Assembly (NCBI GenBank): GCA_014381545.1
Contig: JACNLL010000056.1
Location: 26,846-90,845 of the forward strand
Length of the DNA stretch: 64,000 bases
Source: Candidatus Desulfaltia bathyphila
Lineage (GTDB): Bacteria; Desulfobacterota; Desulfobacteria; Desulfobacterales; ETH-SRB1
Direction of reading: 5' to 3'
The notes below the pieces were generated by a model. The model saw nothing but the letters and a program-made list of their open reading frames with translations, was not told the origin of the DNA and made no database searches. Of this stretch, positions 241 through 60,348 are shown piece after piece. Each line of letters opens with the position of its first letter. Position 1 is the stretch's first letter. The translations under genes were made by a program, and so were the position numbers.

Positions 241-432
241 AGGGATCAGGTATCAGCAATCGGGTGTCAGGAAGACTTTTTTCAAACTCGCTCCGTCACC
301 ATGCTGACTTCGCCAAAGTAGCCCTGGCTACGCCGGCTGAAAGCGGCTTTGGCGCGTCGGTGACTGACCTCTGGTCTCCGACCTCTGACCTCTAATCCCT
401 TATAATCCGTTACCCTTTAATCCTTTTAATCC
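241..432. repeat. Nested imperfect palindrome with heptamer-periodic arms
   Basis: G-arm agggatc/aggtatc/agcaatc/gggtgtc (241-273) faces C-arm cctctga/cctctaa/tccctta (361-432). Inner inverted repeat gtcacc...gccaaag (295-318) pairs with ctttggc...ggtgac (347-364). Confidence 0.6.
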
Positions 433-2537: not shown

Positions 2538-2621
2538 AAATTAGTTGAGTCGTCGAGTTGTTGAATAGGAAAACCATTACCCACTCGACCAATTTCCCAC
2601 TCGACTACTCGACCAATTTCC
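2538..2621. repeat. Imperfect inverted repeat built from short words
   Basis: Left arm aaattagttgagtcgtcgagttgttgaatagg (2538-2569) faces right arm ccactcgaccaatttcccactcgactactcgaccaatttcc (2581-2621). It abuts the stop codon of the TPR gene. Confidence 0.55.
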
Positions 2622-3538
2622 TAATCTGAACCGTATTTCGCCATATAATACTTTGCTGCTTTATTGCCTGGATTTATGTTAAGAGTCTTTTGCCAGTATT
2701 TTAAAGCGTTCTTTCTTTTTCCTGATGTAAAAGCATCCCATGCAGAATCATTATAAACCTTGGCAAGGTTAAGAACAGCGTCCCTGTCTTTGCTGTTTAT
2801 CTTCAGGGTTTTTCTCCACTGCTTTATGGCTGCCTCTTTCTTCCCGGTATTATAGTAAATCCATCCGATTTCATTAAGCGCTTTTGTATATGAAGGTTTG
2901 ATTTCGAGCGTCCTGTTGTATTCAAGCAATGCATTTGCAATCATATCCGCATTATGAAAGGCTTTTGCCAGCCTGAAATGGGTGTCTGCCTCTCCGGAAT
3001 CGGCATTCCTCGCCTTTTTCAGATATTCGATAGCCATAACCGGATTACGCCTGAAATTGTAGATAGTTCCAAGAAAATAGTAGCCGTCTGCACTGTTCTG
3101 ATCGATTTGAATTATTTTATCAAACCTCTCAAAGGCCTGGTTCATTTCCCCTTTACGCAGGTGAAGAATACCGACCCACAAGAGTGCGAAAGTATTTTGC
3201 CTGTCTATATCTGCAACAGTTAAAAATTCTCTGAAAGCTTTGTCAAATTTGCCTTTTTTTCCATACAGGATGCCAAGCTGGTTATGCGCATATTCATTTT
3301 CAGAATCAAGTTTTACTGCTTGTTCAAACCTGCTTACAGCTTTATCCAAATTCCCCTTGTAATGATAGTCAGCCCCCTGGAAGATGAGCTCGTTTACATC
3401 CGCTGCTGCAACAACACTACTACAACAAAAAAACAGAAGCACGGCAAAGATAACATATTTTGCTCTGATCCCTGACCCATGATCCCTGATCCCTGATCCC
3501 AGGCCCCTAATGCCTGGCCCCTGACCCCTGATTCTCAC
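2621..3538 (-). CDS. Exported TPR-repeat protein
   Basis: Multiple TPR units (YHYKGNLDKAVSRFEQAVKLD, NQLGILYGKKGKFDKAFREF and others). Hydrophobic signal core VIFAVLLFFCCSSVVAAA. GTG start at 3538 overlaps the amidase stop (GTGA). Start is uncertain because the first 23 codons are a heptamer array. Confidence 0.7.
   Translation of the reverse strand: MRIRGQGPGIRGLGSGIRDHGSGIRAKYVIFAVLLFFCCSSVVAAADVNELIFQGADYHYKGNLDKAVSRFEQAVKLDSENEYAHNQLGILYGKKGKFDKAFREFLTVADIDRQNTFALLWVGILHLRKGEMNQAFERFDKIIQIDQNSADGYYFLGTIYNFRRNPVMAIEYLKKARNADSGEADTHFRLAKAFHNADMIANALLEYNRTLEIKPSYTKALNEIGWIYYNTGKKEAAIKQWRKTLKINSKDRDAVLNLAKVYNDSAWDAFTSGKRKNALKYWQKTLNINPGNKAAKYYMAKYGSD
3465..3534. repeat. Ten tandem degenerate heptamers (CTGAYCC-type)
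   Basis: Read directly: ctgatcc ctgaccc atgatcc ctgatcc ctgatcc caggccc ctaatgc ctggccc ctgaccc ctgattc. No complementary arm nearby. Lies inside the longest ORF of 2621..3538. Confidence 0.85.
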
Positions 3539-9416: not shown

Positions 9417-9462
9417 AAAAAGTGGGGTTTTCGTTCAGGCACTAAATAACAAATTGCTTTTA

Positions 9463-9484
9463 CATAACACATAACACATAACAC
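9463..9484. repeat. Three tandem heptamers CATAACA
   Basis: acataacacataacacataacacc, read directly. Confidence 0.8.
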
Positions 9485-9485
9485 C

Positions 9486-9515
9486 TGATGAATTCGACTT
9501 TTTACGAATTCATCA
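9486..9515 (-). terminator. Stem-loop immediately after the SpoIID stop codon
   Basis: Perfect 11-bp stem tgatgaattcg/cgaattcatca with an 8-nt loop. On the minus strand it is followed by GGTGTTATGTGTTATG, only moderately U-rich. Confidence 0.5.
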
Positions 9516-11099
9516 TTATTGGCTGCTCAGAGTTACTATTTTAACAGATTGATAATAATGTTTTAAAATATCCTGACAACCGAACCCTTTTTGGGCCATC
9601 ATATTGGCGCCCCATTGACTCATGCCAACTCCATGGCCATAACCTTTGCCGATAAAAAGAATGCCGTCATGATCGGGAGTTATTTTTAGAAGCGTGCTTT
9701 TTAATCTGGTTGCTCCAACCTTTATTCTGAAATTATTGCTTTTTAGTTCGGTTGTCCCGTTCTTTGCAATAACCCTTACTCCCAGTAAACGTCCTGATCG
9801 AGACTCACCGGCGGCATTGAGCCCCCTAATCTGTCCAATATTCAGGCCGTACTTGTTCAAACGATTCTGCATATCATTATATGAAACAAAAAATTTCCAT
9901 TCGCCATTTGGAATATTTGCGCTGAAACTGTCAGGAACTCCTTTAAGATACGGCAAGTCCGCGCTCCATACATTTTTTGAATCCTCGGTATGCCCTCCGC
10001 TGCTTGAATGAAAATAGGCGACAATAAGTTTTCCGTTATATGTAATTACCTGACTACGTGTCTCATCAACTGCCAGATTAGACTCCTTTTTTTCAGAGTC
10101 AAATCCTCCATATACCTGTGATGTCGTGGTTGATTCCACATCATACGGTTTGTCGGCGCTTTTATCTTTAATATAAAGAGCATATGTTCTGGCAGCTACT
10201 GCCTGAGCTTTCAGGGCTTCCTTTGCCCAGTTAGGCGGCATTTCTTTTGGCACAACACCATAAAGATACTGTTCAACCGGAATATTATTAATAACAGACA
10301 GCGATTTTGAATCCGCTAATATAGTAAGATCGCCTCTGAATCTGCGATTATCAACCATAATAGTTTTGCCATCGGTTTTGACCATACACATATGGAGATC
10401 AAGCTTCCGGCCATTTGCCGCAAGCTGCTTCCCCTGTTTTGTGAAGGTTACAGGCCCGGAGCTACGATAAATCATTTTCTTTGAAAATGGATTGTGCAGC
10501 GAGATGTTTTGCTCTGAATAAACGGTAATTTTTTCAGCTCTGTTTTTAATCAAAACCCTGATATTTGTATCCTCAACATCCCTCTTATATAAAGGAGCTG
10601 CAGTAATCACTTCAGGTTTCCGGATTTGCGACATCTGAGCCTTCGCGCTGTCAGCCCATACTTCCGCCGATTGTCTGCGCAGGCCATAAGGATATTTTTC
10701 CAGGTATTTTTTAAAAAAAGCATGTGCTCTTTTAAATTTTCCTGTTTCATACAGGACCATTCCGCTGTTAAAAACAGCATCAGAGGCCGCATGGCTGGTC
10801 GGACAGGTTTTAATGATTTTGTCAAATTGTTTTAAAGCAACGTCATACTGATCAAGATAAAGGCTGTAAGTAGTTCCCATGAACAATAATGCCCGCGCTC
10901 TGTTGTCCTGTTTATCCGAATAATCTGAAATCTCCTGATATATGCTTAACGCTTCAAGATACATTCCATTATTAAGCAGTCTGGCGGCTGTCTTAAAACC
11001 TCTAACATCATTATATGCAGCGATAGCTGTTTCTTCTGCATAAACGAAAAACAGGCAAAAAAAACAAAGAAAAAAGATTGAAACCGGTTTTTTTAACAT
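9516..11099 (-). CDS. SpoIID/LytB-domain peptidoglycan-remodelling protein with N-terminal TPR
   Basis: Signal peptide. TPR helices at the N-terminus. SpoIID motifs AQAVAARTYAL and YFHSSSGGHTEDSKNVW. Confidence 0.8.
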   Translation of the reverse strand: MLKKPVSIFFLCFFCLFFVYAEETAIAAYNDVRGFKTAARLLNNGMYLEALSIYQEISDYSDKQDNRARALLFMGTTYSLYLDQYDVALKQFDKIIKTCPTSHAASDAVFNSGMVLYETGKFKRAHAFFKKYLEKYPYGLRRQSAEVWADSAKAQMSQIRKPEVITAAPLYKRDVEDTNIRVLIKNRAEKITVYSEQNISLHNPFSKKMIYRSSGPVTFTKQGKQLAANGRKLDLHMCMVKTDGKTIMVDNRRFRGDLTILADSKSLSVINNIPVEQYLYGVVPKEMPPNWAKEALKAQAVAARTYALYIKDKSADKPYDVESTTTSQVYGGFDSEKKESNLAVDETRSQVITYNGKLIVAYFHSSSGGHTEDSKNVWSADLPYLKGVPDSFSANIPNGEWKFFVSYNDMQNRLNKYGLNIGQIRGLNAAGESRSGRLLGVRVIAKNGTTELKSNNFRIKVGATRLKSTLLKITPDHDGILFIGKGYGHGVGMSQWGANMMAQKGFGCQDILKHYYQSVKIVTLSSQ

Positions 11100-11115
11100 G
11101 ATATAATATTTTTTT

Positions 11116-11185
11116 GACAGGATTTACAGGATGTTCAGGATTAAAAAAACCTCAACTCTCATCCTGTAAATCCTCATCAAAATCC
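11116..11185. repeat. Word-built hairpin (CAGGATT-type)
   Basis: gacaggatttacaggatgttcaggatt faces atcctgtaaatcctcatcaaaatcc. Confidence 0.55.
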
Positions 11186-11197
11186 TTTACGTTGCGT

Positions 11198-11258
11198 TCA
11201 CGCGGCGCAAGCGCCCCTGCCGCGACGGGCGCGAGCACGGCGGGTGCGCTGCTCGTGA
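11198..11258. repeat. GC-rich 60-bp imperfect palindrome, copy A
   Basis: tcacgcggcgcaagcgcccctgccgcgacgggcgcgagcacggcgggtgcgctgctcgtga. Near-identical copy at 28221-28279. Confidence 0.85.
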
Positions 11259-13919: not shown

Positions 13920-14041
13920 AATATGTTATCTGCCTTTCCCTTTTAGGCAACACAATACCTGATATTGTAATTTAGGACACAAGGGGATTATTGATTTTAA
14001 TTCCTAAATTCCTGAATCCCTTAATTCCTAAATCCATCACT

Positions 14042-16285
14042 CTACTTGGTTTTCATGGTAAATGCCCCATCCCAATCTTTTGGAGGGGGTGTGATTTTAT
14101 ATTCATCACACCTGAGAAGCATGGCTTTACTTGGACTATCGTCAGGCGTCAACTCCAATGCTACCTTAAAAAAACTTCCGGCTTTTTCCCAATCCTGATT
14201 TCTGTATGCATAAAGGCCGTTGGTGTAATTTTCTATTGTCTTACTCATGCGTTCATCAATATCTTTTGGATAACCTAAAAGCTGATAAACCGTTACCGGT
14301 TCTTTTTTCCCCACAACATTTATCGAATCAATTTCCCTTGCCATTATTTTATTGCCGGCTGCCCTGTAAGTCGTTTCACTAATCAGCGTGTAAATTCCGT
14401 ATATTTTGTTAACCCCTTCCAGCCTTGCAGCAATGTTAACCGTATCTCCCATCATTGTATAGTCCATGCGTGTTTTTGATCCCATGTTGCCCACAACAGC
14501 CGCACCCGTGCAAAGACCGATCCGCATATAAAGTTCCGGCTTGCCTGATATTCTCCAGCCTTCTCTTAGTTCAGACAGCCTTTTTTGCATGTCAATGCAA
14601 GCCATGCATGCTATTTCTTCCTGATTTTCAAGCTCGTTAGGGGCTCCAAAAAATGCGATTATAGCATCACCTTCAAATTTATCCACCGTTCCTTCATATT
14701 TAAGGATTATGCTTGTCATTTCTGTAAGGAATTCGTTTAACAGTTCAACCAGCTCCTTTGGAGTCAGTCCTTCGGAAATGCTTGTAAAACCCTGGATGTC
14801 TGAAAAAAACGCTGTAATTACACGTTCTTCACCACCCAACACAAGCTTTTCAGGAGACTCGATAAGCTGTTTGACAACCGTGGGGGCAAGATAAGTAGAA
14901 AAAGCATTTTTGATAAATCTTTTTTGCCTTGACTCTGTAAAATATTTGTATGCGGTTATACTGATATATACTAAAATTATTACGGTCAGAGGATAAACAA
15001 GGTTGAGAATTAAGCCCTTTTGAGAAAATAGATACTGACACAGAAATATATGGCCGATAAACAATGAGAAAGCGGCTGCAGCGCCTGATATGCCGCCTGC
15101 TTTAGGGAGCACAAACCCGAGGATAAGTCCGGCAACAATTATTGCCATGATGTCAAAAATAGCGGCCCAGGCCGGCTGATACATAAAATCCTTTGAAAGG
15201 ATGCTGTCTGCGACATTTGCATGGATTTCAACACCTGGAAAAACAGTTCCAAATGGAGTAACCCTTAAATCATATATTCCGACAGCCGTGGCGCCTACTA
15301 TTACAATTTTGTCTTTCACAACAGTATCGGCTATATTGTTATTTAATATATCTGTAACCGGTATATGAGGAAAGGTTTTCTCTGCTCCTCTGTAATTTAT
15401 CAAAATTCGTCCCAGCTCATCTGTCGGTACCGCTAATTTCCCGATTTGCACTCTTTCCACGCCATATTCACCAATATTCATTGAAATCGGACTTTCTAAA
15501 TAAGCGCTGACAGTAATCAGCGACAAAGGAGCGTACAACGTCTCCATGTACTTTAAGATACCTGGCATCCATCGCACAACCCCGTCTTTGTCAGGCAACA
15601 TATTGAAGAATCCACAATAATCGGTTGCGGATGAAATAATTTCTATATTAGATTGAGGTGTTCCGGCTTCAATAAGCGCTATATTCTGAGCAGATCCGGA
15701 AGCATAACGTATAAATTTATACTTGGAACCTGAAATGTTATCCTGGTGAATGCTGATTTCGTTTTCGCTGATATGACTTGATTCAGTGGAATCCATGTGG
15801 AAAAAATATCCCAGCACTATCTTGGCAGTGGAATTTCTTATAGCATCGGCAAGGAGTTGATCGTTGTTTGCATGCTTTTTTAGATTTTTCAGGTAGTTGT
15901 CAATTTCCTTTTTTCGAATATCGTGATTGTGAATTGTGCGTTGTATCTCATTTATGGTGTTTACAATTTTTTTATCATCAGGCTCCAAAAATCCGATATC
16001 AAATGCTATTACCCTGGCGCCGGCTTTTGACAGCTTTGTAACAAGATTTGCGATTTTTGACCTTGGCCATACCCACTTTCCCTCTTTACTAATGCTTTTT
16101 TCATCAATAACTGCCAGAACCACATCAGGGCCCGGGGAAATTTGTCCTCTGGCCTCAAATCTTAAATCAATGGTTTTTAATTCCATTAGATCAAGAAAGG
16201 ATATCCCTTGCAAATAGGCAAGGATTCCGATGAATATGGCAAACATAGAAATGAGAAGAGGATAGAGTAAAGCGATTTTTTTCAT
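14042..16285 (-). CDS. CHASE2-sensor class III adenylate/guanylate cyclase
   Basis: TM, then a CHASE2 region (VVLAVIDEKSISKEG...VIAFDIGF), TM cluster, then cyclase core ITAFFSDIQGFTSISE...KFEGDAIIAFFGAP...GTAVVGNMGS. Start moved to MKKIALLYPL. Confidence 0.85.
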   Translation of the reverse strand: MKKIALLYPLLISMFAIFIGILAYLQGISFLDLMELKTIDLRFEARGQISPGPDVVLAVIDEKSISKEGKWVWPRSKIANLVTKLSKAGARVIAFDIGFLEPDDKKIVNTINEIQRTIHNHDIRKKEIDNYLKNLKKHANNDQLLADAIRNSTAKIVLGYFFHMDSTESSHISENEISIHQDNISGSKYKFIRYASGSAQNIALIEAGTPQSNIEIISSATDYCGFFNMLPDKDGVVRWMPGILKYMETLYAPLSLITVSAYLESPISMNIGEYGVERVQIGKLAVPTDELGRILINYRGAEKTFPHIPVTDILNNNIADTVVKDKIVIVGATAVGIYDLRVTPFGTVFPGVEIHANVADSILSKDFMYQPAWAAIFDIMAIIVAGLILGFVLPKAGGISGAAAAFSLFIGHIFLCQYLFSQKGLILNLVYPLTVIILVYISITAYKYFTESRQKRFIKNAFSTYLAPTVVKQLIESPEKLVLGGEERVITAFFSDIQGFTSISEGLTPKELVELLNEFLTEMTSIILKYEGTVDKFEGDAIIAFFGAPNELENQEEIACMACIDMQKRLSELREGWRISGKPELYMRIGLCTGAAVVGNMGSKTRMDYTMMGDTVNIAARLEGVNKIYGIYTLISETTYRAAGNKIMAREIDSINVVGKKEPVTVYQLLGYPKDIDERMSKTIENYTNGLYAYRNQDWEKAGSFFKVALELTPDDSPSKAMLLRCDEYKITPPPKDWDGAFTMKTK

Positions 16286-16398
16286 AAGCAAAACCGTATA
16301 GGATGAGACATGTTCAATTTTGTTGACCTGTATGATTTTTATATTGTAATACTTGCTGAAAGTCAACAATACGCAACAAGTAACGAGTAACGAGCAAT

Positions 16399-17178: not shown

Positions 17179-17260
17179 ATTGAGGAATTGCGAATTGAGG
17201 GATTGAGGGATTAAAATTAGTAGAATACCTTTAAATCCTAAATTCCCCAATTCCTAAATA
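17179..17260. repeat. Word-built hairpin (GAGGAAT/GAGGGAT versus ATTCC/ATCC)
   Basis: attgaggaattgcgaattgagggattgagggattaaa faces tttaaatcctaaattccccaattcctaaata, with a 15-nt loop. Confidence 0.6.
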
Positions 17261-17312
17261 TCTTTCTGTCTTGGTGGCTGAACTATTATGGTTTTGTTTG
17301 TTAAGGATTTAA

Positions 17313-18050: not shown

Positions 18051-18093
18051 TTCATCAAAAATTAGAGAACAGGAGCCATACAATAAAATAGCC

Positions 18094-19092
18094 ATGGACT
18101 TAAATTTTAGCAAAAAAGAAAAAACAGTTGGAACATTTATAATCTGCATCATAGTTATACTGCTGACTACTGTGGTGATTATCGGCAGAGGTAAAGACTG
18201 GTTCAAAACATATATTATATATTATACTACTTTTGACGAAAGTTATAATCTTAAAGAAGATGCTGCTGTAAAACTATTTAAAGCAGATATAGGAAAAGTA
18301 AAAAAAATTATACTTGTTGAAAACAAAGTTAAGGTTAAGCTGGCTATTTTAGAGGAATATTCTTCCAGAATAAGAAGCGATTCTGTTGCAATTGTGGAAA
18401 GCCCGACATTTATCGGGTCTGAATATATTTCCATTAAACCAGGAAGCGCCGACAGCCCCCTGATACCCGAGGGCGGAGAAATCAATTCCACGGCAAAAAA
18501 ATCAATATCAGACCTCATGTCAGAGTTTCAGGTTGAAGAAACAGCTAAAAAGGTTATCGGGATGGTCCAGGATATCTCAGAAATAACGCAAATAATGCGC
18601 GATCCCAATGGCCCTTTTTTTACAACCGTCAACAACTTAAACAAAACTGTTTCTCATCTTGAAGCTATTACCGGTGATATACAGGCCGGCAAGGGGACTG
18701 CCGGCAGTATACTAAAATCCAGGGAAGTCCTGCAAATCATACTTGATGATCTTGACAAAGTAACTCAGATTCTGGAAAGCATTACCGAGGCATCTTCAAA
18801 AACACCTGAAATAACAAATAAGGTTCAGGATAATCTTGCGACAATAAAGAAGGTTGGAGAGGAAGTATTGGATAGCATCTCAAGCATTAAAAGGATCTTG
18901 AAAGAGGTGGAAGAAGGGAGCCATGATATACCGGAGGTTACGCGATCTACAAAAAGAGGAATTAACGAAATCAGAGATGGAGTAGAAAACATAGATAAGG
19001 TCGTTGATTCGCTTAAGAAAAATTTTTTGATAAAGCCGAATCTTCCGCCCGAACCAAAAGGCAAAAATATTGACGCCGGCTTGCGGCAATAA
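18094..19092 (+). CDS. MCE/MlaD-domain protein with long helical C-terminal extension
   Basis: One N-terminal TM. MCE-like beta region (YTTFDESYNLKEDAAVKLFKADIGKVKKIILVENKVKVKLAI). About 200 aa of heptad-like helical sequence follows to the C-terminus. Confidence 0.75.
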   Translation: MDLNFSKKEKTVGTFIICIIVILLTTVVIIGRGKDWFKTYIIYYTTFDESYNLKEDAAVKLFKADIGKVKKIILVENKVKVKLAILEEYSSRIRSDSVAIVESPTFIGSEYISIKPGSADSPLIPEGGEINSTAKKSISDLMSEFQVEETAKKVIGMVQDISEITQIMRDPNGPFFTTVNNLNKTVSHLEAITGDIQAGKGTAGSILKSREVLQIILDDLDKVTQILESITEASSKTPEITNKVQDNLATIKKVGEEVLDSISSIKRILKEVEEGSHDIPEVTRSTKRGINEIRDGVENIDKVVDSLKKNFLIKPNLPPEPKGKNIDAGLRQ

Positions 19093-21456: not shown

Positions 21457-21558
21457 GTTGGTTAGGCTGTAGGCTAAAGGCTGTTGGTTTTTGCGGATTG
21501 TTCGTATGATCATGGATGATTCTTTCCTAACAGCCTAAATGCCTATAGCCTATCTACC
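21457..21558. repeat. Heptamer-periodic hairpin between convergent operons
   Basis: ggttggt/taggctg/taggcta/aaggctg (21457-21488) faces cctaaca/gcctaaa/tgcctat/agcctat (21526-21558). Loop is about 37 nt. Confidence 0.75.
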
Positions 21559-25693: not shown

Positions 25694-25947
25694 TTTTGAA
25701 AATATGGCTGCTCCAGGTATAATTAAATTTTATACTGAAAAAACTCGTAGATAACGGCTCGTAATAAAAGAACCTGCCCGGGCTATTAATAAAGGTTTTT
25801 GTTTTAAGAAAATGTTTCATCTTTAAATCAAATCACTTATGGTTCTTTTATAACGATCCCTAATCCACTCAAACAGTTTCCAATATAAAATTTAATCATA
25901 CCTGAAGCTTGTTTAAAGTCGATTTGTTTCAAAAGGCTAAATTAATA
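25694..25947. mobile_element. About 255-bp palindromic MITE-like element, copy 1
   Basis: Reverse complement of 48878-49133 aligns end to end at roughly 90% identity by eye. Terminal inverted repeats ggtataattaaattttatactg and caatataaaatttaatcatacc. The inner arms are also complementary. No ORF. Confidence 0.6.
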
Positions 25948-26370: not shown

Positions 26371-26653
26371 AGTTTCGCACCCTTGATTTCTATCAAAGTC
26401 AAGGCGGTAAAGGAGCCAAATTCAATTTTTCAAGCGAAATGATTTATCTGTATTTTTTAACCAGCACTCCACGACTTGTGCCAAGGACAGGCACAAAGGA
26501 TATATAACTTACTGAACTCATACGTGGTTTCAAACAGTATCTTATTGTTTGTGATTGGTGCCGTTGTCGAAGTTTAAGGTATAATATTTCGCTTTAAAAA
26601 TTTATTTTGGCCCTTACCGTTTAAAGGCTTTAATAAATAAAAAGGGTGCTAAA
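26371..26653. repeat. About 72-bp imperfect inverted repeat pair with about 140-bp spacer
   Basis: Arm 26371-26443 (gtttcgcaccctt...aaaggagccaaattcaatttttcaagcgaaatg) is matched by the reverse complement of 26583-26653 (…aagggtgctaaac). A third partial arm lies at 26933-26965. Confidence 0.6.
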
Positions 26654-26686: not shown

Positions 26687-26804
26687 TGAAGAACCCTGTA
26701 GCAAGCTACAGGGAATCTTCGACCGTAAGGAAGTTGGCCATTTTTAGATTCGCTCGCTAACCCCGCAGCAAGCTACGGGGAATGCGCTCGCTATTGCGGT
26801 TCAA
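26687..26804. repeat. About 118-bp double-hairpin repeat, intergenic copy
   Basis: gaagaaccctgtagcaagctacagggaatcttcgaccgtaaggaagtt...ccccgcagcaagctacggggaatgcgctcgctattgcggttcaa. A co-linear copy lies at 54701-54818 inside ftsX. Confidence 0.8.
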
Positions 26805-28220: not shown

Positions 28221-28279
28221 TCACGCTGCGCAAGCGCCCCTGCCGCGACGAGCGCGAGCACGGCGGGTGCGCTACGAGA
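28221..28279. repeat. GC-rich imperfect palindrome, copy B, filling the tRNA-Lys/tRNA-Glu spacer
   Basis: tcacgctgcgcaagcgcccctgccgcgacgagcgcgagcacggcgggtgcgctacgaga. It differs from 11198-11258 at only a few positions. Confidence 0.85.
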
Positions 28280-28355: not shown

Positions 28356-28419
28356 TATTGGAAAAATAGACATCTAATCACAAATTTCATTCTTGTCAAT
28401 AAAAATAGTTATATTACCC

Positions 28420-28569
28420 CAATTGAGCGAAACGCTCAATTGATAGTTGTCGGGTGCCAGGGATCAGGGATCGGCAAACTGAATTGAGCAGTTTTTTAGA
28501 TGCACATCTCTTACTGTTCCCTGAATACTGACCCCTGACCCCTTTCTAATTGAGCTTTGGCTCAATTAG
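28420..28569. repeat. Composite element: two related perfect 10-bp hairpins flanking a heptamer-word hairpin
   Basis: caattgagcg-aaa-cgctcaattg (28420-28442). cagggatcagggatc (28456-28474) faces ccctgaatactgacccctgacccc (28518-28543). ctaattgagc-tttg-gctcaattag (28546-28569). Confidence 0.75.
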
Positions 28570-28573
28570 AATA

Positions 28574-31454: not shown

Positions 31455-31539
31455 GTCATTGCGAGGGAGGCACGACCGAAGCAATCTCCAGGAAACAAGG
31501 GGATTGCTTCGTCGTTCGTTCCTCACTCCTCGCAATGAC
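31455..31539. repeat. REP-like palindrome (GTCATTGCGAGG...CCTCGCAATGAC)
   Basis: gtcattgcgagggaggcacgaccgaagcaatc pairs with gattgcttcgtcgttcgttcctcactcctcgcaatgac. Confidence 0.7.
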
Positions 31540-33103: not shown

Positions 33104-33116
33104 TAGACCCCTTAAA

Positions 33117-33300
33117 AGATGAACGTCCAACATCGAACATTGAACGTCGAATAATGATGTCGCTCCGCTCCTCAAATTATTTTAAAATCGAATAAAAAAA
33201 TCAATGCCGAACCTTGAATGACTATTTTTCTGTTTCTTTTCAGATGTTCATCTTTTCCCATTCAACATTCGATGTTGGACGTTCGATGTTCGATGTTCAT
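33117..33300. repeat. Heptamer-periodic inverted repeat with about 100-nt spacer
   Basis: gatgaac/gtccaac/atcgaac/attgaac/gtcgaat (33117-33156) faces cattcaa/cattcga/tgttgga/cgttcga/tgttcga/tgttcat (33259-33300). An additional TAATCC word run lies at 33335-33362. Confidence 0.75.
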
Positions 33301-33345
33301 TTTTTTCAGTCCCTCCTGGGCAAAAACAACTTAGCGCTTAATCCC

Positions 33346-33888
33346 CTAATCCTTAATCCTCATTATTGGCCGCAATGCCTTTGCAATAGGAATCGCTGCC
33401 GCAATCTTCAGGGCATCGCCTAAGATAAAAGGATACATCCCCACAATTAGTGTTTTAGCGAGAGTCATGCCGGTTAACAGTTTAAGCCAGGAAAGGCCGC
33501 ATGCATAAATGACAACTGATCCGCAACACATTGCGATTACATCAAAAGCAGCATGCCGGCCTGTTTTCTCCGTAATCAGGCCGATAATATATACAGCCGG
33601 AAGATACCCAAAAAGGTAGCCCCCGGTCGGCCCCAGCAATCGTCCTATCCCGCCTGTTCCACCCGCAAAGACTGGGAAACCGCAGGCTCCGGCCAAAAGA
33701 TATACCCCAACACTTGCAAGGCCCATTCTACTTCCCAATAAAAGGCCTGCAAGAAATATAAATAAATTCTGAAGGACGATGGGAACCGGGCCTATGGGTA
33801 TTGAAAGGTATGCGCCTGCAGCGGTTAAGGCTGCAAAAAGTGAAGCATATGCTGTTTTGCGAAGCTGTATGGAATGATTTGTATTCAT
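33346..33888 (-). CDS. bioY: Biotin transporter substrate-binding (S) component BioY
   Basis: 180-aa, 6-TM protein. LSIPIGPVPIVLQNLFIFLAGLLLG and GPTGGYLFGY are BioY hallmarks. Translationally coupled to birA. Confidence 0.85.
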   Translation of the reverse strand: MNTNHSIQLRKTAYASLFAALTAAGAYLSIPIGPVPIVLQNLFIFLAGLLLGSRMGLASVGVYLLAGACGFPVFAGGTGGIGRLLGPTGGYLFGYLPAVYIIGLITEKTGRHAAFDVIAMCCGSVVIYACGLSWLKLLTGMTLAKTLIVGMYPFILGDALKIAAAIPIAKALRPIMRIKD

Positions 33889-38516: not shown

Positions 38517-39863
38517 TTAATTAATGCTTTTTAGCTTTTTATACAGGTAGCTTTGCTTAACCCCTATTGATTCGGCTGTTTTTGCAACATTATTATCATG
38601 TTGCAAAAGTTTTTTTTGGATAAATTCTTTTTCAAAGGCCTTTTTTGCATCCTTTAACTGATTGATTATAAATAACTGCGATTTAACGTCTTCCCCAAGA
38701 TTCGAATTATATGGCGCCGGTATATCGGAAACATCAATCATATCGTCTTCCGCCATAATAGCCATCCGCTCCACAAGATTCTTCAGTTCTCTGACATTTC
38801 CCGGCCATGAGTAGGCACATAAGATATCGAGCGCTTCCCTGGTTATCCCCTTTCTTTTACTGTGATTTTGTTTTGCGCTTTCATCTAAAAAAGTTTCAAC
38901 AAGAAGCGGAATATCCTCGCAACGATTCCTCAGGCTTGGGACTTCGATAGGTATTACATTCAACCGAAAATAAAGATCCTCTCTAAAGCTTCCCTTTTCA
39001 ATCTCCCTTTCAAGATCTTTGTTGCTGGCAGCAATTACCCTGACATTGACACTTAATGTTCTGCTTCCTCCGACACGCTGGAATTTTTGTTCTTGCAACA
39101 CGCGAAGAATTTTGGCCTGAGTCCTTAAACTCATATCCCCTACTTCATCAAGGAAAATCGTTCCATTGTTTGCCAGCTCAAATTTGCCTCTTTTCTTGCC
39201 GGTTGCTTCCGTAAATACCCCTTTCTCATGGCCAAACAGCTCGCTTTCAATCAGTTCTTCCGGAATTGCCGCGCAACTAACATCAACAAAGGGTTGATCC
39301 GCCCTTGGGCTTAACTGGTGAATTGTACGCGCAACAAGCTCCTTGCCTGTGCCGTTTTCTCCTGTGATAAGGATCCATGCATCTGTCGGGGCTGCAATCG
39401 CTATCTGCTTTTTCAGAGCCACGGTTGGATAGCTGTCTCCGTTTATCGAGTGTTTTTCTATTGTCTTTTTCCGAAGATATCTGTTTTCCTCTTCAAGCCT
39501 CCTGAAGTTTAGCGCATTATTAATCGCAACAATTACCTTGTCAATCGAAAGCGGTTTTTCAATTAAATCAAACGCTCCAAGCTTTGTGGCCTTAACAGCG
39601 GTCTCTATTGTCCCGTGCCCCGATATTATTATTACCTGGATAAAGGCGTTATTTTTTTTTATCTCCTTTAATGTCTCAATTCCGTCGATACCAGGCATCC
39701 ATATATCAAGCAAAACAAGATCCGGTGACTCGCTATCTATAATTTTTAAGGCTTCATAACCATTGGTGGCCGTTAAGACCTCAAAACCTTCATCATAAAG
39801 CAGGCCGCTTAAAGACTGGAGTATGGATGGTTCGTCGTCAACAATCAGAACAGATGGAAACAT
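38517..39863 (-). CDS. ntrX: Sigma-54-type (NtrC/NtrX-family) response regulator
   Basis: Receiver domain (VLIVDDEP...DLVLLDIWMPG). AAA+ domain (ITGENGTGKE, GTIFLDEVGDM). Fis-type HTH at the C-terminus. The GAFTGA loop reads GVFTEA. Confidence 0.8.
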   Translation of the reverse strand: MFPSVLIVDDEPSILQSLSGLLYDEGFEVLTATNGYEALKIIDSESPDLVLLDIWMPGIDGIETLKEIKKNNAFIQVIIISGHGTIETAVKATKLGAFDLIEKPLSIDKVIVAINNALNFRRLEEENRYLRKKTIEKHSINGDSYPTVALKKQIAIAAPTDAWILITGENGTGKELVARTIHQLSPRADQPFVDVSCAAIPEELIESELFGHEKGVFTEATGKKRGKFELANNGTIFLDEVGDMSLRTQAKILRVLQEQKFQRVGGSRTLSVNVRVIAASNKDLEREIEKGSFREDLYFRLNVIPIEVPSLRNRCEDIPLLVETFLDESAKQNHSKRKGITREALDILCAYSWPGNVRELKNLVERMAIMAEDDMIDVSDIPAPYNSNLGEDVKSQLFIINQLKDAKKAFEKEFIQKKLLQHDNNVAKTAESIGVKQSYLYKKLKSIN

Positions 39864-39921: not shown

Positions 39922-40111
39922 TTCGCTTTGCTTAATTGCGAATTGAGGAATTCAGGAATTCGCTTCGCTTAATTGCGAATTGAGGAATTCAGGAATTTAG
40001 GAATTAAAGGTATTCTGTTGATTTCAATCCCTCAATCCCTCAATCCCTTAATCCCTTAATCCCTCAATTCCTCAATTCCTCAATTCCTTAATTCCTCAAT
40101 TCCTCAATCCC
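39922..40111. repeat. Largest word-built hairpin: duplicated G-arm plus 11 tandem octamers T[CT]AAT[CT]CC
   Basis: Direct duplication ttcgctt(t/c)gcttaattgcgaattgaggaattcaggaa (39922-39958 and 39959-39995). G-arm units gaattgag/gaattcag/gaatttag/gaattaaa. The C-arm 40024-40111 was counted as 11 octamers. It ends at the kinase stop codon. Confidence 0.85.
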
Positions 40112-42345
40112 TACACAGGCAGCTCTATTACAAATTTGGCTCCCTGAGGCTGGTTATCATGCACCTGTATCATGCCGTTATGATCGGCAACAATCGTGCT
40201 GACAATTGTCAGGCCTAATCCCATGCCCGTCTTTTTTGTTGAAAAATAGGGCTCAAAAAGATGTGTCTTATCTTCATCAGAAATGCCTGGGCCATTATCG
40301 GCAACCTCTATCCGAACAATGTGTAAGATAGGATCACTGGTTAATGTAATTGAAATTTTGCCATTTGTCTTAATCGAAGCAATGGCATTGTCAACAAGAT
40401 TAATCATAGCCTGCTTAATCTGCCTGCGATCAATATTTAAAGGCGGAATATCCTCTGTCATGCTGATTTTGAAATCTATATCTTGATGCCCTTCTTTGTA
40501 TAGCGCCACGGTTTCTTCAATAATGGGCGGCAGATCGCAAAGTTCGGGATTTGCCGCTGGAAATCTTGCAAACGCGGAAAACTCATTTACCAGGTTCCGA
40601 ATCAAATCCACATGATCAATTATCATTTGAATACATTCCTCAAAAACCGGTTCATTTATCTGTTTTGAATATCTTCTTTTTAGACGCTGAGCCGAAAGAG
40701 AGACCGGGGTTAAAGGGTTTTTGACTTCATGGGCAATCCTGCGCGCGACTTCACGCCATGCCGCAATGCGCTGGGCCTTTTCCAGTTCCGTAAGGTCATC
40801 AAAGACCATTACTATGCCCATATGGTTTCCCGCGTCGTCTTTAAGCGCATTAACATGCATCATAAAACTACGCTGCCTTCCTTGTATTGTTAATCTAAGC
40901 GGAAGGGTAACATCATCCTCCCGGGAGCTGGTCAGATTATCAATTATTTCTTCTGCGAGATTCAGGTGTTGCCCTTTAAGCAGATTTTTATAGTTTTTAT
41001 TCAGCATATCCTTTGGGATAAGATTGAGCATCTTTTCAGCGGACTTGTTTATGGTTGACACAAGCCCGCTTGGGTCAAGAGTTATTACGCCGGCAGAAAC
41101 ATTCTTCAATACTATTTCCATATGCTGCCGTCTTTTTTCTATCTCAACATTTTGTTTGCGAAGCATACCTGCGGAAAGCTCTAATTGTTCCCTGCTAATA
41201 CGTAAATCTTTTGTCATCTTATTAAATGAATCAACAAGAGTGCCGATTTCAGCATCAGCCACAGGGCCGATGCTGAATCCCAAATCTCCTTCCGCAACCC
41301 TTCGTGTCCCCTCGGCAAGCTCCATGATCGGTATTGTAATAGATTTTGCCAGGTAAAACCCAAACCATATCGCGCAAAAAACAACAAGCAGTGCCACGAT
41401 TGAAAGGGTTATATAATAGGTTGTCTGGATCGGTTTCTTAAGAAGTATTATCTGTTGATATTCCTCAAAACCTCTTGATATGGATGCCATATTTTCAGAA
41501 AGATCAGGAGGAATCAATACCGACAATACAACAAAGCCTTTGGCATCTGTGTAATTTGTGCCAAAAGGAATAGTTCCAATCGTTCTTATTAGCTCCCCTT
41601 CCGGAATTTTTTCAAAAACCGACCTTACCCCTTTTGGCTCTATATCCTTTTGAAAATCATCAGTAGAAACAACGCGAAAAGGCTTATCTTCCAGTTCCAT
41701 GGCAAGAGCAAATGTAAGACGGTTTGCATTCACGCTATAAATTTCAACAGCATCAATATTAAATGCCCGCTGAACAACCTGAACATAGTGGGAAAGGGCT
41801 TTCCTTTTTTTTTCAGCCAGAAGTTTTTTGGTGTTTATCTGGTAGGCAATTCTTTCCAGATAAAACCGGTTATTTTCTTCTGCACGATTATACAAACGCC
41901 TTCCTACAAGCAATGAGTTTTCAAGAGCCTGCTCTACAGGAACATTAAACCAAAATTCAATGCTGGTTGTAATAAAGCTGATTGAAAAGAAAAAAAGCAC
42001 AATCGTAGGCAAAAGAGTAAGCGCAATAAAGGCGACCACAAGTCTCGTGCGAAGTTTTGCCCCCATCACCTTGCGCTTTCTATCATAGAGCAACTTTACC
42101 AGATTTCTAAACACAAGAAATATCAACAAGATAAGCAGCAGTAAATTGATGTTGATTAATATGAACATCAATATTGTGTTGGAAATCGGAATCTCTGCCC
42201 CAAAATGTATTACCTTGTGCTCAGCAAAGGTCATGAGGGCAATGGCAAAGATAACTATGACAATCAGAATGCCTTCACGTTTCCGCCTTTTGCGTTCCTC
42301 TTCTAAGACATGAGATTTTGGACTTTTGAATATATTATTGCTCAT
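40111..42345 (-). CDS. ntrY: NtrY-like sensor histidine kinase (TM-HAMP-PAS-HisKA-HATPase)
   Basis: N-terminal TM cluster. HAMP (ITIPIMELAEGTRRVAEGDL). PAS region. H-box AHEVKNPLTPVSLSAQRL. N/G boxes (NLVDNAI, DNGPGI, GMGLGL). Confidence 0.8.
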   Translation of the reverse strand: MSNNIFKSPKSHVLEEERKRRKREGILIVIVIFAIALMTFAEHKVIHFGAEIPISNTILMFILININLLLLILLIFLVFRNLVKLLYDRKRKVMGAKLRTRLVVAFIALTLLPTIVLFFFSISFITTSIEFWFNVPVEQALENSLLVGRRLYNRAEENNRFYLERIAYQINTKKLLAEKKRKALSHYVQVVQRAFNIDAVEIYSVNANRLTFALAMELEDKPFRVVSTDDFQKDIEPKGVRSVFEKIPEGELIRTIGTIPFGTNYTDAKGFVVLSVLIPPDLSENMASISRGFEEYQQIILLKKPIQTTYYITLSIVALLVVFCAIWFGFYLAKSITIPIMELAEGTRRVAEGDLGFSIGPVADAEIGTLVDSFNKMTKDLRISREQLELSAGMLRKQNVEIEKRRQHMEIVLKNVSAGVITLDPSGLVSTINKSAEKMLNLIPKDMLNKNYKNLLKGQHLNLAEEIIDNLTSSREDDVTLPLRLTIQGRQRSFMMHVNALKDDAGNHMGIVMVFDDLTELEKAQRIAAWREVARRIAHEVKNPLTPVSLSAQRLKRRYSKQINEPVFEECIQMIIDHVDLIRNLVNEFSAFARFPAANPELCDLPPIIEETVALYKEGHQDIDFKISMTEDIPPLNIDRRQIKQAMINLVDNAIASIKTNGKISITLTSDPILHIVRIEVADNGPGISDEDKTHLFEPYFSTKKTGMGLGLTIVSTIVADHNGMIQVHDNQPQGAKFVIELPV

Positions 42346-44026: not shown

Positions 44027-44138
44027 GTCTGGGTTTTAAGGTTCAGGGTTAATCGCGTTGCGATTTTTTTCTATGCCATTGATTTCACCAGGCAAGCATC
44101 ATGAGTCTGTCAACCTTTGAACCTCTGAACCTCTGATT
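44027..44138. repeat. Heptamer-periodic hairpin downstream of carB
   Basis: ggtctgg/gttttaa/ggttcag/ggttaat faces caacctt/tgaacct/ctgaacc/tctgatt. A small inner hairpin aatcgc-gtt-gcgatt (44051-44065) is followed by a T-run. Confidence 0.7.
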
Positions 44139-48877: not shown

Positions 48878-49133
48878 GTATCAATTTAGCCCATTGAAAC
48901 AAATCAATTTCAAACGAGCTTCAGGTATGATTAAATTTTATATTGGAAACTGTTTGAGTAGATTATGGATCGTTATGAAAGAACCATAAGCAATTTGATT
49001 TAAGAATGAAACATTTTCTTGAAACAAAAACCTTTATTAATAGCTCTGGCAGGTTCTTTCGTTACGAGCCGTTATCTACGAGTTTTTCCAGTATAAAATT
49101 TAATTATAGCTAAAGCGGTAGTATTTTCAAAAA
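48878..49133. mobile_element. About 255-bp palindromic MITE-like element, copy 2 (inverted relative to copy 1)
   Basis: See 25694-25947. Lies between the ychF stop and the purF-like start. Confidence 0.6.
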
Positions 49134-54017: not shown

Positions 54018-55010
54018 CTATTCTTTTAAAAATTGTCTCAGAGAAATAAAACACCCTAACCATCCAACAAGCATGCTGCACAATATTATTGTGCTGGACT
54101 GCCTGAGCGAAAGAAACCTGACGTGTAACAAATCGGAAGATAGGCCCTGTTCAACATTGGTTGATATATATATATAAACGGCAAATAATGCAGCAAGCCC
54201 GATGATTCCTCCAAGTGCACTCTGGATAATGGCTTCAATGTAAAAAGGGGTCTTGATAAATCGGTCGGTAGCTCCAACCAGACGCATTATTTCAATCTCT
54301 TCACGCCTTGAATAGATTACAAGTCTGATAGTGTTGGCTACGATAAAGACAGCGGCTATGAAGAAAATACCGCTCATAGCATACCCTGTTAATCTGAACA
54401 GATCAAAGAGCTTAACAAATCGTCCGATCCATCTACGGCCATATTCAACATCATCTATTTCAGGAAGTGATTCAATCTGAACCGCCAGATTTTCAATCCT
54501 TTCACTGTTTGGAAACTGCCCTGTAAGACGGATTTCAAAGGCATCGGGAAGTGGGTTCTCCTTGAGTCCATCAAGAAGGGAAGATTGCCGTTTCATCTGC
54601 TCTCTAAGTCGCTTCATAGCTTCCTCTTTTGATATGAACCTGGCCTCGGCGACCCCATAGAGCCCCTGAATTCTGTTTTTTATATCAACAAGGTTTGGTT
54701 GAAGCTCCCCGCTGCTTGCGGCAGGGAATCTTCGACCGTAAGGAAGTTTGCTATTTTTGGATTCGCTTGCTAACCCCGCCGCAAGCAGCGGGGAATGCGC
54801 TCGCTTTTGCGGTTCAACTATATCCGGTTTGAGGTATGCTATTATTCTTATTCCCTTTTTCCAGGAACTCATATAGTCGTTTGCATTGAGAAAAAAAAGA
54901 ACAATAGTACTGACTATAAGTATTGACAGAAATATTGTAATAATTGTGACTGCATTCAGAAATTTGTTGGTTCGGATATCCTGAATGGCCCTTTTAAAAA
55001 AGAGAATCAT
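54018..55010 (-). CDS. ftsX: Cell-division ABC transporter permease FtsX, carrying an in-frame repeat insertion
   Basis: FtsX topology and motifs (periplasmic loop ...RFISKEEAMKRL..., 3 C-terminal TMs). Follows ftsE. Confidence 0.85.
   Translation of the reverse strand: MILFFKRAIQDIRTNKFLNAVTIITIFLSILIVSTIVLFFLNANDYMSSWKKGIRIIAYLKPDIVEPQKRAHSPLLAAGLASESKNSKLPYGRRFPAASSGELQPNLVDIKNRIQGLYGVAEARFISKEEAMKRLREQMKRQSSLLDGLKENPLPDAFEIRLTGQFPNSERIENLAVQIESLPEIDDVEYGRRWIGRFVKLFDLFRLTGYAMSGIFFIAAVFIVANTIRLVIYSRREEIEIMRLVGATDRFIKTPFYIEAIIQSALGGIIGLAALFAVYIYISTNVEQGLSSDLLHVRFLSLRQSSTIILCSMLVGWLGCFISLRQFLKE
54701..54818. repeat. About 118-bp double-hairpin repeat inside the ftsX coding sequence
   Basis: Co-linear with 26687-26804 (shared cagggaatcttcgaccgtaaggaagtt and ggggaatgcgctcgc...tgcggttcaa). 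Translated in frame as PQKRAHSPLLAAGLASESKNSKLPYGRRFPAASSGE. Confidence 0.8.
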
Positions 55011-55098
55011 AAACGTCTCGGAAATTCTACAACTTAATGAAATTAAAGAGTTTTTTTCATTATTCCAATTGTGAGCAAAGCGAAATAAGTCCTATTCT

Positions 55099-59357: not shown

Positions 59358-59412
59358 TTAGCTTCCTGATATTGTTACGGCTCTCATGTTGTCACGGCTT
59401 TTTTGATATGAT

Positions 59413-59537
59413 ATAAACTTTCAGATAAATAATTTCACTGCGTTATCGGTCGGACTTCTCGACGACGTACTAACATATGTACGCCTTACTCGAAGTCCTC
59501 CCTCTAGCCTTGTGAAATGAATTATCTGAAAGTTTAT
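59413..59537. repeat. 125-nt nested near-perfect palindrome in the dnaJ/ubiE divergent intergenic region
   Basis: Outer arms ataaactttcagataaataatttcac and gtgaaatgaattatctgaaagtttat. Inner arms ggacttctcgacgacgtac and gtacgccttactcgaagtcc. Confidence 0.8.
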
Positions 59538-59577
59538 AGCTACACTTAATTTAAAAAACATAATACACAAGGCATGG

Positions 59578-60297: not shown

Positions 60298-60309
60298 AAC
60301 ATAAAAAAA

Positions 60310-60348
60310 GCCCTGCATGCTAAAGTAAAGCGATGCAGGGCTTTTTTT
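60310..60348. terminator. Bidirectional intrinsic terminator between convergent ubiE and ppaC
   Basis: Stem gccctgcat/atgcagggc, flanked by an A-run upstream (60303-60309) and a T-run downstream (60342-60348). Confidence 0.75.

Follow-up and report, generated by a model that had tools for sequence, protein, structure and literature searches.

What are the hairpins with tandemly repeated arms that lie between the genes of Candidatus Desulfaltia bathyphila, and how did they come to stand there? We addressed this question from a 64,000-nt stretch of DNA of this organism (referred to as the window here), in which one such hairpin fills positions 39922 to 40111, between the genes for an NtrY-like histidine kinase and a sigma-54 response regulator. 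For comparison, we used related loci (named by L numbers, e.g., L007), which together with the window make up a census set of 831 kb. Elements of this kind are intergenic, their families are dispersed to unrelated sites, they are present or absent at orthologous sites, and their arms change by whole units. On balance, we consider them likely to be dispersed, noncoding, mosaic palindromic elements, similar to MITEs (miniature inverted-repeat transposable elements) or BIMEs (bacterial interspersed mosaic elements), whose stems are inverted minisatellites of 7- to 9-nt words.

The hairpin between the kinase and regulator genes, both of whose types are recognized in the window by their Pfam domains (sigma-54 activator and NtrY type), is composed of the following parts, with the tandem arrays delimited by Tandem Repeats Finder (TRF).

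39922..40111: the whole element; the gene for the NtrY-like histidine kinase (40111-42345, minus strand) stops on one side of it, and the sigma-54 response-regulator gene (38517-39863, minus strand) starts on the other
39922..39997, minus strand: outer-side duplication, a 37-nt segment × 2.1, 97% matches (TRF)
39940-39961 and 39977-40005, plus strand: G-rich arm of GAATTSAG units
40007-40022: loop core AAGGTATTCTGTTGAT
40024-40112: C-rich arm of 11 octamers, TCAATCCC/TCAATTCC (TRF, 8 nt × 11.1 copies, 92% matches)

The count of 11 octamers given in the initial annotation of this DNA is therefore the one that TRF recovers. Each copy of the 37-nt segment holds the end-module motif CAATTAAGCRAAGCGAA, a variant of CAATTGTGAGCAAAGCGAAC, with matches to AGCRRAGCGA at 39923 and 39960; this duplication is not found in the orthologues of L007 and L003 (alignment A1). 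The arms pair in several registers that are 85 to 95% complementary, reaching an inverted-repeat score of 51 against a shuffle maximum of 26, and the predicted minimum free energy is −64.8 on the plus strand (z score, −7.7) and −80.3 on the minus strand (z score, −8.8). A 5-kb stretch that includes the 247-nt spacer of this locus is base-for-base identical in four independent assemblies, showing that the element is not an assembly artefact.

Hairpins of similar build recur in the window. TRF reported period-7/8 arrays at almost every locus listed earlier, and the intergenic part of the window (7.2 kb, according to a crude split into coding and intergenic DNA) contains 10 nonoverlapping arrays of this period, compared with 0.4 in dinucleotide-preserving shuffles. 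Coding DNA showed no clear enrichment over shuffles. Seven of the nine listed hairpins passed both the test of periodicity and the test of arm complementarity; at 2538, 17179, 21457, 33117, 39922, and 44027, arm complementarity exceeded all 200 shuffles and 7/8-nt lag identity all or nearly all of them, and at 28456 the complementarity score was reached in 3 of the 200. The arms at 11116 are more complementary than in any of the 200 shuffles, but the period there is 9 (TRF). At 241-432, where the fold is mostly due to a GC-rich central insert, the complementarity score was reached in 61 of 200 shuffles and is thus not significant; the periodicity was reached in none. The inverted-repeat search recovered the arms in several registers, as expected from complementary arrays (for example, 39977-40010 versus 40053-40086, 34 nt at 88%, and 33114-33157 versus 33262-33305, 44 nt at 80%), and the RNAfold z scores of the listed hairpins range from −1.8 to −8.8. 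Since both periodicity against shuffles and formal arm complementarity hold, the intergenic hairpins with degenerate 7- to 8-nt tandem arms proposed in the initial annotation are real. The single architecture ascribed to them applies to most loci, the exceptions being the period at 11116 and the arms at 241-432. Similarly, the arrays at 3465 and 9462 are single armed, as had been claimed, but the one at 13998-14036 has a short eroded partner at ∼13960-13990.

To see how these elements behave over short evolutionary distances, we compared orthologous sites. The NtrY-like kinase, searched against species-representative genomes, matched seven metagenome-assembled genomes (MAGs) at 92 to 97% amino acid identity, all labeled Desulfobacteraceae, Desulfobacterales, Thermodesulfobacteriota, or Candidatus Desulfaltia. 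Over the ∼22 kb compared with these relatives, the genes are collinear and ∼90% identical in DNA sequence, and the breaks in the alignment fall at intergenic regions, often ones that hold repeat elements. At the kinase/regulator site, the closest relative, L001, has no element: a 17-nt unaligned gap leaves a spacer of ∼25 nt, which contains a two-unit CGTAACTCGTAACG. L007 and L003 carry the GGGATTGAGG/AATTCCT words of the window in fewer units, with alignment gaps of 56 and 40 nt (alignment A1) that correspond to 7 and 5 octamers of one arm. Other genomes have other words at this position, namely CGGTTCAC/GTGAACCG octamers around a 7-nt loop in L005, GGTTCAR heptamers in L002, and GAGGTCA and GAGAATA arrays in L004 (∼4120-4450). 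The L004 arrays are followed by an extra small open reading frame (ORF), which is missing from the other genomes at this junction. All of this turnover is seen among genomes whose kinases are 92 to 97% identical.

Further sites, compared among genomes with flanking genes that are ∼90 to 97% identical, gave the same picture. Two short spacers of the window, 47382-90 (9 nt) and 38508-24 (17 nt), are represented by array elements of 150 to 230 nt in L002, L005, and L007, and position 35870 marks another site that is filled on one side and empty on the other between the window and its relatives. The orthologous site of L005 lacks the whole ∼153-nt block at 28411-28561, and the boundaries of the gap are clean. 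At the site orthologous to 44027, L002 and L005 have no array, L006 has ACAGGAT words, and L007 has unrelated sequence. In L030, compared with L026 and L118, nearly identical flanks enclose a difference of exactly one 8-nt unit. The differences in arm length, 8, 40, and 56 nt, are whole units. These filled and empty sites and whole-unit gaps show that gain, loss, and whole-unit resizing of the elements far outpace the divergence of the genes. The two arms resize independently in L030 and in the window; we also considered concerted growth of both arms, for which the unit counts show only a weak correlation (Spearman coefficient, 0.40; P = 0.025; related copies).

The initial annotation had assigned a private word set to each locus. 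Instead, word families occur at scattered sites, and nonorthologous copies have loops, end modules, and one nested composite in common. GAGGRATT words are found at 39922, 17179, 13998, and 393-434, and CTGAYCC words at 241, 3465, and 28456. Three unrelated sites (39922, 17179 on the reverse strand, and L007 16944-17070) have the same arms and, beyond these, the same nonrepetitive loop core, AAGGTATTCT/AAGGTATTCTRYTRAT. The locus at 17179-17283 is the nested composite of L007 16846-17116, in which an outer arm of CACAAAGA encloses the inner hairpin, but it lies at a different genomic site; 17179 is 100% identical over 36 nt to L007 17035-17070. The composite thus looks as if it had moved as a unit. 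Outside the window's own sites, the GTCGAGT family of 2538 is present at L007 13744-13897, L002 11815-12017, L005 14762-14897, and in L053; the left arm of 11116 (ACAGGAT family) at L039 471-496 and L006 ∼8385; homologous copies of the TCGAACA family of 33114 in L118, L092, and L006; and the GGTTCAG family of 44027 at other sites in other genomes. A conserved string, TTTTTTTGACAGGATTTACAGGATRTTCAGGATWWAAAA, makes up the G-rich arm of the ACAGGAT family and is itself dispersed (window 11100-11140, L039 ∼460-500, L006 ∼8380-8420). It contains a perfect TTGACA; a convincing −10 element was not found with it.

Some families also have conserved modules at their ends. The 19-mer 3′ module CAATTGTGAGCAAAGCGAA has 109 exact metagenome matches in differing flanks. 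In most of its listed contexts it stands directly 3′ of a C-rich octamer array, (CANNATTC)n, with a complementary (GGAATNNT)n array 66 to 250 nt upstream, and a strict lag-8 test was passed by 31 of 95 contexts; other matches directly follow (ACTCGAC)n arrays. A 5′ module, CGTCTCGGAAATTCTACAA, lies 31 to 356 nt upstream of CAATTGTGAGCAAAGCGAA in 32 of the 95 contexts. The AGCRRAGCGA core occurs four times in the window, compared with 0.4 expected, every copy being inside an array element. Inspected by eye as a sigma-70 or sigma-54 promoter, CGTCTCGGAAATTCTACAA has a spacing that fits neither consensus. The modular elements of L026, L030, and L118 can occupy an entire intergenic region, from the upstream stop codon, where the 5′ module starts, to a 3′ module that ends 6 nt short of the downstream ATG; a Shine-Dalgarno sequence is not obvious there. 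Given that modules reach an upstream stop and a downstream ATG there and the ftsX start in the window, the elements may supply 5′ untranslated regions.

These observations bear on a purely local origin, according to which chance seeds would have grown by slippage and then undergone inverted duplication, without any mobility, similar words being convergent. The whole-unit insertions and deletions do show slippage at work, the two-unit CGTAACTCGTAACG at the empty L001 site could be such a seed, four window loci (241, 3465, 21457, and 28456) have unique word sets, and single-arm arrays exist at 3465 and 9462. However, nonorthologous copies share nonrepetitive loops (AAGGTATTCTGYTGAT), end modules, and the nested outer/inner composite, and the 19-mer module recurs in 109 exact matches with differing flanks. 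Because shared loops, modules, and the nested composite are not what convergence would produce, we regard a local origin of the elements as a whole as unlikely, while local slippage is a possible origin for the four loci without relatives.

Across the census set, periods of 8 (145 arrays) and 7 (92 arrays) dominate, and a reverse-complement partner lies within 250 nt of 117 of the 299 period-7/8 arrays, versus 2 in a complement-only control. In arrays whose arms differ in composition, the G-rich one is 5′ and the C-rich one 3′, which by symmetry is true on both strands. This G-first polarity is seen in 103 arrays versus 3 and in 13 of 16 compositionally asymmetric word families, with CACAAAGA as the one clear C-rich-first family. 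Most arms have 3 to 5 units (mode, ∼4), and the period stays constant at 7 to 8 nt while the sequence varies over ∼19 word families. We also looked for exclusion from divergent (promoter) regions, which is not seen: a paired array is present in 6 of 71 divergent and 5 of 65 convergent regions.

Considering that the elements are short (70 to 300 nt), noncoding, multicopy, and dispersed at nonorthologous sites, as MITEs are, our preferred explanation is that copies would be spread by a trans-acting mobilization system. After insertion, the arms would grow and shrink by slipped-strand mispairing, and the second arm may be a fold-back or template-switch copy of the first, which would give both arms the same word family. 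The usual position of the G-rich arm at the 5′ side would fit a snap-back of a G-rich nascent 3′ end; alternatively, this polarity may have arisen by selection, e.g., for shielding C-rich RNA from Rho. The neighborhood of stop codons would be the least harmful place for such elements to persist in a compact genome. Cotranscribed with operons, they would form long imperfect mRNA hairpins, presumably as a side effect and not as the reason for their existence.

Several observations weigh against this explanation. No transposase, REP-associated tyrosine transposase (RAYT; REP, repetitive extragenic palindromic), or parent insertion sequence was found in the data examined, and no inverted pair of 3′ modules flanks an ORF, as in a parent insertion sequence, in the 831 kb. 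The 3′ module is arranged as a terminal inverted repeat in only one element, of 122 nt, in L007. The repeat AACTAT at the boundaries of 28411-28561 is ambiguous as a target-site duplication, and other sites are not cleanly resolvable. The loci at 241, 3465, 21457, and 28456 have no relatives in the 831 kb and could have arisen in place. Moreover, genes in the metagenome loci are crude longest-ORF calls, making orientation and distance statistics rough, and the metagenome set was chosen by a single module (CAATTGTGAGCAAAGCGAA), so that its copies are related and not independent samples. As to the ends of individual copies, the arms are themselves inverted, and a perfect 21-nt terminal inverted repeat, AGTTCGCTTTGCTCACAATTG, is present in one copy (L007 13751-13892); in most copies, the 5′ and 3′ modules are unlike each other or lacking.

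The constant 7- to 8-nt period and the G-first polarity could also point to a dedicated generator in place of generic slippage, an idea we consider improbable. It might be an enzyme that reiteratively copies a short template onto a G-rich 3′ end, which then snaps back, or else a recombinase that binds the AGCRAAGCGA module, mobilizes the elements, and seeds the arrays. If true, this would be a new bacterial route to palindromic minisatellites, common to the inverted heptamer arrays of Xanthomonas.

The remaining array loci of the window, which show how the elements sit relative to genes, are as follows (z scores are from RNAfold, and inverted-repeat scores are given against the shuffle maximum).

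241..432: periodic words with a GC-rich central insert (AGGNATC at 241-275, CTGACCT at 364-393, TAATCC-type words at 393-434)
2538..2621: GTCGAGT-word hairpin, which a TPR-protein gene (2621-3538, minus strand) adjoins with its stop codon; z −4.6/−3.6; inverted-repeat score 27 versus 19; lag identity 0.50
3465..3534, minus strand: single-arm array, GGGATCA/GGGTCAG × ∼10 (TRF 3465-3532, 7 × 9.7), directly beside the stop codon that ends an amidase gene
9462..9484: single-arm heptamer array, ACATAAC × 3.3, beside a small palindrome (9486-9515) that adjoins a stop codon
11116..11185: ACAGGATTT-word hairpin (period, 9 nt); a SpoIID-like gene (9516-11099, minus strand) has its start codon 16 nt away; inverted-repeat score 30 versus 19; z −6.4/−6.3
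13960..14040: short hairpin, C-rich arm AATTCCTA × 4.4 (13999-14033, 8-nt period; 94% match to the arm of the main locus) plus an eroded G-rich partner at ∼13960-13990; a CHASE2 cyclase gene (14042-16369, minus strand) has its stop 5 nt away
17179..17260: GAGGRATT-family hairpin 3 nt past the mlaE stop, in the space that separates mlaE from an ABC ATPase gene (TRF array 17179-17212)
17261-17283: remnant outer arm TCTTTCTGTCTTGGTGGCTGAAC, a member of the CACAAAGA family
21457..21558: TAGGCTG-word hairpin flanked by convergent genes, whose stops lie 14 nt and 2 nt away (TRF array 21463-84); z −8.5/−5.7; inverted-repeat score 27 versus 20
28411..28573: ∼153-nt block between the trkH stop and tRNA-Lys, with a GGGATCA/CTGACCC hairpin (28456-28543; z −2.0/−3.7; TRF arrays 28458-72 and 28528-43) between two small AATTGAGC palindromes
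33114..33305: TCGAACA/TTCGATG hairpin between bioY and an ABC ATPase gene, 44-nt arms that are 80% complementary, flanked by A and T runs, with an internal GGAGCGGAGCGAC motif (TRF arrays 33121-51 and 33268-98); z −5.0; inverted-repeat score 40 versus 32
33337..33360, minus strand: short array, GGATTAA × 3.3 (TRF), overlapping the bioY stop codon
34909..34937, plus strand: lone arm, GTTCAGCCACCAAGACAAAGTCACAAAG, belonging to the CACAAAGA family and situated between divergent genes
44027..44138: weaker GGTTCAG/CTGAACC hairpin between carB and lpxC (TRF array 44112-36); z −1.8/−2.1; inverted-repeat score 20 versus 19
55005..55095, plus strand: minimal modular element of 5′ module CGTCTCGGAAATTCTACAA, one CATTATTC unit, and 3′ module CAATTGTGAGCAAAGCGAA, the 5′ module adjoining the start codon of ftsX on the opposite strand

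Many array words contain TGA, TAA, or TAG (for example, in the arrays 40024-40112 and 33337-33360); since a period of 7 or 8 is not a multiple of 3, such words place stops in all three frames within about three units.

As the initial annotation had noted, the loci tend to adjoin stop codons. This applies to 10 of 12 window loci, which stand 0 to 45 nt after a stop and are closer to it than to the next start, but not to 11116, which lies near a start codon instead. This proximity would be explained if the elements were host-selected RNA structures, acting as terminators, intercistronic attenuators, or 3′ stabilizers against exonucleases, a reading that we find rather doubtful although it is the best placed of the alternatives to mobility. 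It is favored by the strong folds, by the A and T runs of 33114-33305, which resemble a bidirectional terminator, and by the same ORF-3′-end bias in the arrays of Xanthomonas and Nostoc (Rehm et al. 2015, PMC4692102). However, most of the hairpins have no U-tract, and a terminator scan does not return them as units. Several lie within operons (kinase/regulator, mlaE-F, bioY-ABC, and carB-lpxC), where termination would be harmful, and close relatives lack elements, L001 doing without the one at the kinase/regulator site. In a strand-symmetric count of G:U against A:C mismatches, would-be G:U pairs in the stems number 20 sense versus 19 antisense, and transversions are the majority. The oriented 3′ module, with 28 sense versus 19 antisense copies in codirectional contexts, is unbiased, and 6 of 71 divergent regions hold elements as well. 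Taken together, the missing U-tracts and the lack of a sense G:U bias and of an orientation bias leave a selected RNA role unsupported.

We also compared the hairpins with canonical intrinsic terminators and with known RNA families. Array hairpins and intrinsic terminators are alike in that a hairpin directly follows a gene, and the A and T runs of 33114-33305 add to the similarity. Unlike a compact GC-rich stem with a 3- to 8-nt loop and a U-tract, the array stems are 25 to 90 nt long, imperfect, and AT rich, their loops are often 20 to 250 nt, and a T run is present only at 33114-33305. Elsewhere in the window, at 60301-60348, a textbook bidirectional terminator (A run, GCCCTGCATGC stem, T run) between convergent genes shows that terminators of the ordinary kind are in use in this organism. 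Opposite to the array hairpins, the stem of this terminator is C-rich-first. Rfam 15, at gathering score, returned only tRNAs in the window and 14 related loci.

Two further functional readings start from the words themselves. The G-rich arm could fold as a G-quadruplex (G4) in DNA or RNA, with the complementary arm competing, as regulatory repeats of the type described in Xanthomonas. Some words do have the form G3N4-5 (GGGATCA, GGGTCAG, and GGGATTGA), the modal arm of ∼4 units is that of Xanthomonas, and the only two canonical G4 motifs in the 64 kb are both inside arrays on the sense strand, one of them at 3470-3507. Still, a canonical G4 is possible at only 2 of 12 window loci, and most families (GGAATNNT, GTCGAGT, TAGGCTG, ACAGGAT, TCGAACA, ATTGATG, and TTTTAGC) have no G3 run, which makes this reading very unlikely in our judgment. 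We give equally little credence to phased sites for a protein that reads 7- to 8-nt units, either a single-strand binder of the Csp/S1 type or an iteron-like binder, whose footprint would set the period. The constant period across ∼19 families is what such a protein would produce, heptamer-binding Csp, S1, or CsrA proteins have been proposed for TAACTGA arrays (MacGregor 2015, PMC4679880), and the conserved AGCRAAGCGA module could be a protein site. On the other side, the words are too diverse to suggest a single sequence-specific binder, single-stranded sites would be hidden once the arms pair, and no candidate protein is linked to the elements.

Coming back to mobile, mosaic palindromes, we asked which known repeat systems the elements resemble. 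Heterocystous cyanobacteria reportedly carry short tandemly repeated repetitive (STRR) heptamer sequences, said to go back to work by Mazel and colleagues in 1990. The consensus words of STRR1 to STRR3 are CCCCAGT, TTGGTCA, and CAACAGT. The elements here are likewise intergenic tandem arrays with a 7-nt period, according to TRF and the enrichment over shuffles. Nevertheless, the cyanobacterial frame in which the initial annotation had placed them does not apply: the kinase and 20 kb of synteny match only MAGs of Desulfobacterales and Candidatus Desulfaltia, and the STRR1 to STRR3 words form no tandem doublet in the window or the 831 kb of related DNA. Direct TAACTGA arrays are known from Beggiatoaceae, cyanobacteria, and Bacteroidetes, mostly just upstream of start codons, with 169 direct sets and only one inverted set (MacGregor 2015, PMC4679880). 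STRR and TAACTGA arrays share with our elements the intergenic location, the 7-nt period, several word families per genome, and a variable copy number, but they are direct single arrays in other taxa and with other words, while the inverted pair is the defining feature here.

A closer parallel had been described already, contrary to the suggestion that hairpin-forming heptamer arrays were new. Rehm et al. 2015 (PMC4692102) reported inverted pairs of GGGAATC arrays in Xanthomonas, with 70 to 75 convergent pairs per genome, stem-loop potential, and unknown function, as well as GGGGA(T/C)T arrays in Nostoc PCC 7120, where inverted pairs are few. The Xanthomonas arrays lie nearer to the 3′ end of the upstream ORF than to the next start and prefer ∼4 units; between related strains the unit number varies, and the type (single or inverted pair) is kept. 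Intergenic tandem heptamers, a G-rich strand, the ORF-3′-end bias, and ∼4 units are thus common to both systems. Convergent inverted pairs near ORF 3′ ends are found here too (13 of 16 families G-first, 10 of 12 loci near stops), and the plus-then-minus pairs of Xanthomonas apparently have the same G-arm-first polarity. The Rehm arrays, however, use one word per genome, defined by its G4 potential (a GGGNATC or GGGGAYT unit with at least four G-tracts), compared with ∼19 families here, mostly without G-runs. The elements also differ from them in phylum and in that octamers are as common as heptamers, loops and end modules are conserved, insertions are nested, and families are spread over nonorthologous sites. 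No tandems of GGGAATC, GGGGAYT, or TAACTGA are present in the window or the 831 kb of related DNA.

In their modular build, the elements resemble BrickBuilt, a MITE of Porphyromonas gingivalis made of a leader, a 23-nt direct minisatellite, and a tail (Klein et al. 2015, PMC4596501). Both are noncoding, multicopy, strictly intergenic, and arranged as module, repeats, and module, with a unit number that varies between copies; unlike in BrickBuilt, two inverted 7- to 8-nt arrays form a stem here, and many word families have similar end modules. REPs, BIMEs, and REPINs (REP doublets forming hairpins) are built from GC-rich palindromes of 20 to 40 nt with a GTAG/CGTC tag and are linked to RAYTs (Bertels & Rainey 2011, PMC3116915; Di Nocera et al. 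2013, PMC3733652). They too are abundant extragenic palindromes downstream of genes, with module mosaics, hairpin doublets, and presence or absence between relatives. Unlike in REPs, the stems here are AT-rich tandem arrays, and no RAYT was found in the data examined. The 5′ module does begin with CGTC, but no palindrome follows, which sets it apart from a REP or REPIN. Nostoc punctiforme is said to harbor small dispersed repeats (SDRs; reportedly studied by Elhai and colleagues in 2008), tiny mobile units often inside tandem heptamers or mini-transposons. The AGCRAAGCGA-type modules and loop cores beside arrays are reminiscent of what is reported for SDRs, but phylum and sequences differ. In the searchable literature, whose coverage is incomplete, we found no description of such repeats from Desulfobacterales, with their many word families, octamers, shared modules and loop cores, nested composites, and G-arm-first polarity, and this version of an already described type of repeat appears to be new.

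The window contains several other repeats. An element of ∼200 bp is present in two copies of opposite orientation (25710-25908 and 48918-49116); terminal inverted repeats of 32 nt (88%) and another inverted repeat farther inside give it a MITE-like look. At the site orthologous to 48918-49116, L002 shows a clean junction without the element, whereas a 2-kb, apparently protein-coding insertion is present in L005. A GC-rich REP-like palindrome, CACGCGGCGCAAGCGCC(CCTGCCGCGA), has three copies in AT-rich intergenic DNA (9375-9391, 11199-11215, and 28222-28238), one of them between tRNA-Glu and tRNA-Lys and another beside the 11116 hairpin. A second family of GC-rich palindromes (GAAGCTCCCCGCCGCAAGCAGCGGGGAATGCGCTCGCT) is found at 54707-54793 and 26761-26780 as well as in L002 and L005; the copy at 54707-54793 forms a 21-nt inverted repeat (95%) inside the ORF called ftsX (54018-55010), and a copy in L002 sits between the 5′ module and a GTCGAGT array. 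A dispersed palindromic element of ∼85 nt, GTCATTGCGAG...GCGAAGCAATCTC / GAGATTGC...CTCGCAATGAC, is located at 31455-31539 in the window and at differing sites in L007 (∼15640-15760 and ∼18090-18190) and L003 (∼5600). Finally, two long inverted repeats, 59412-59538 (47-nt arms, 79%) and 26415-26611 (35-nt arms, 80%), lie in divergent intergenic regions and are not built from tandem words.

For this abundant sediment lineage, the array elements appear to account for much of the difference between genomes. They will confound assembly, binning, and strain typing, and at the same time they are hypervariable markers. Since they put long hairpins into housekeeping operons, they may also modulate expression there. 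The G-first polarity is apparently common to these elements and those of Xanthomonas, and if it reflects the way in which the arrays are made, it would point to a general route to palindromic minisatellites in bacteria.

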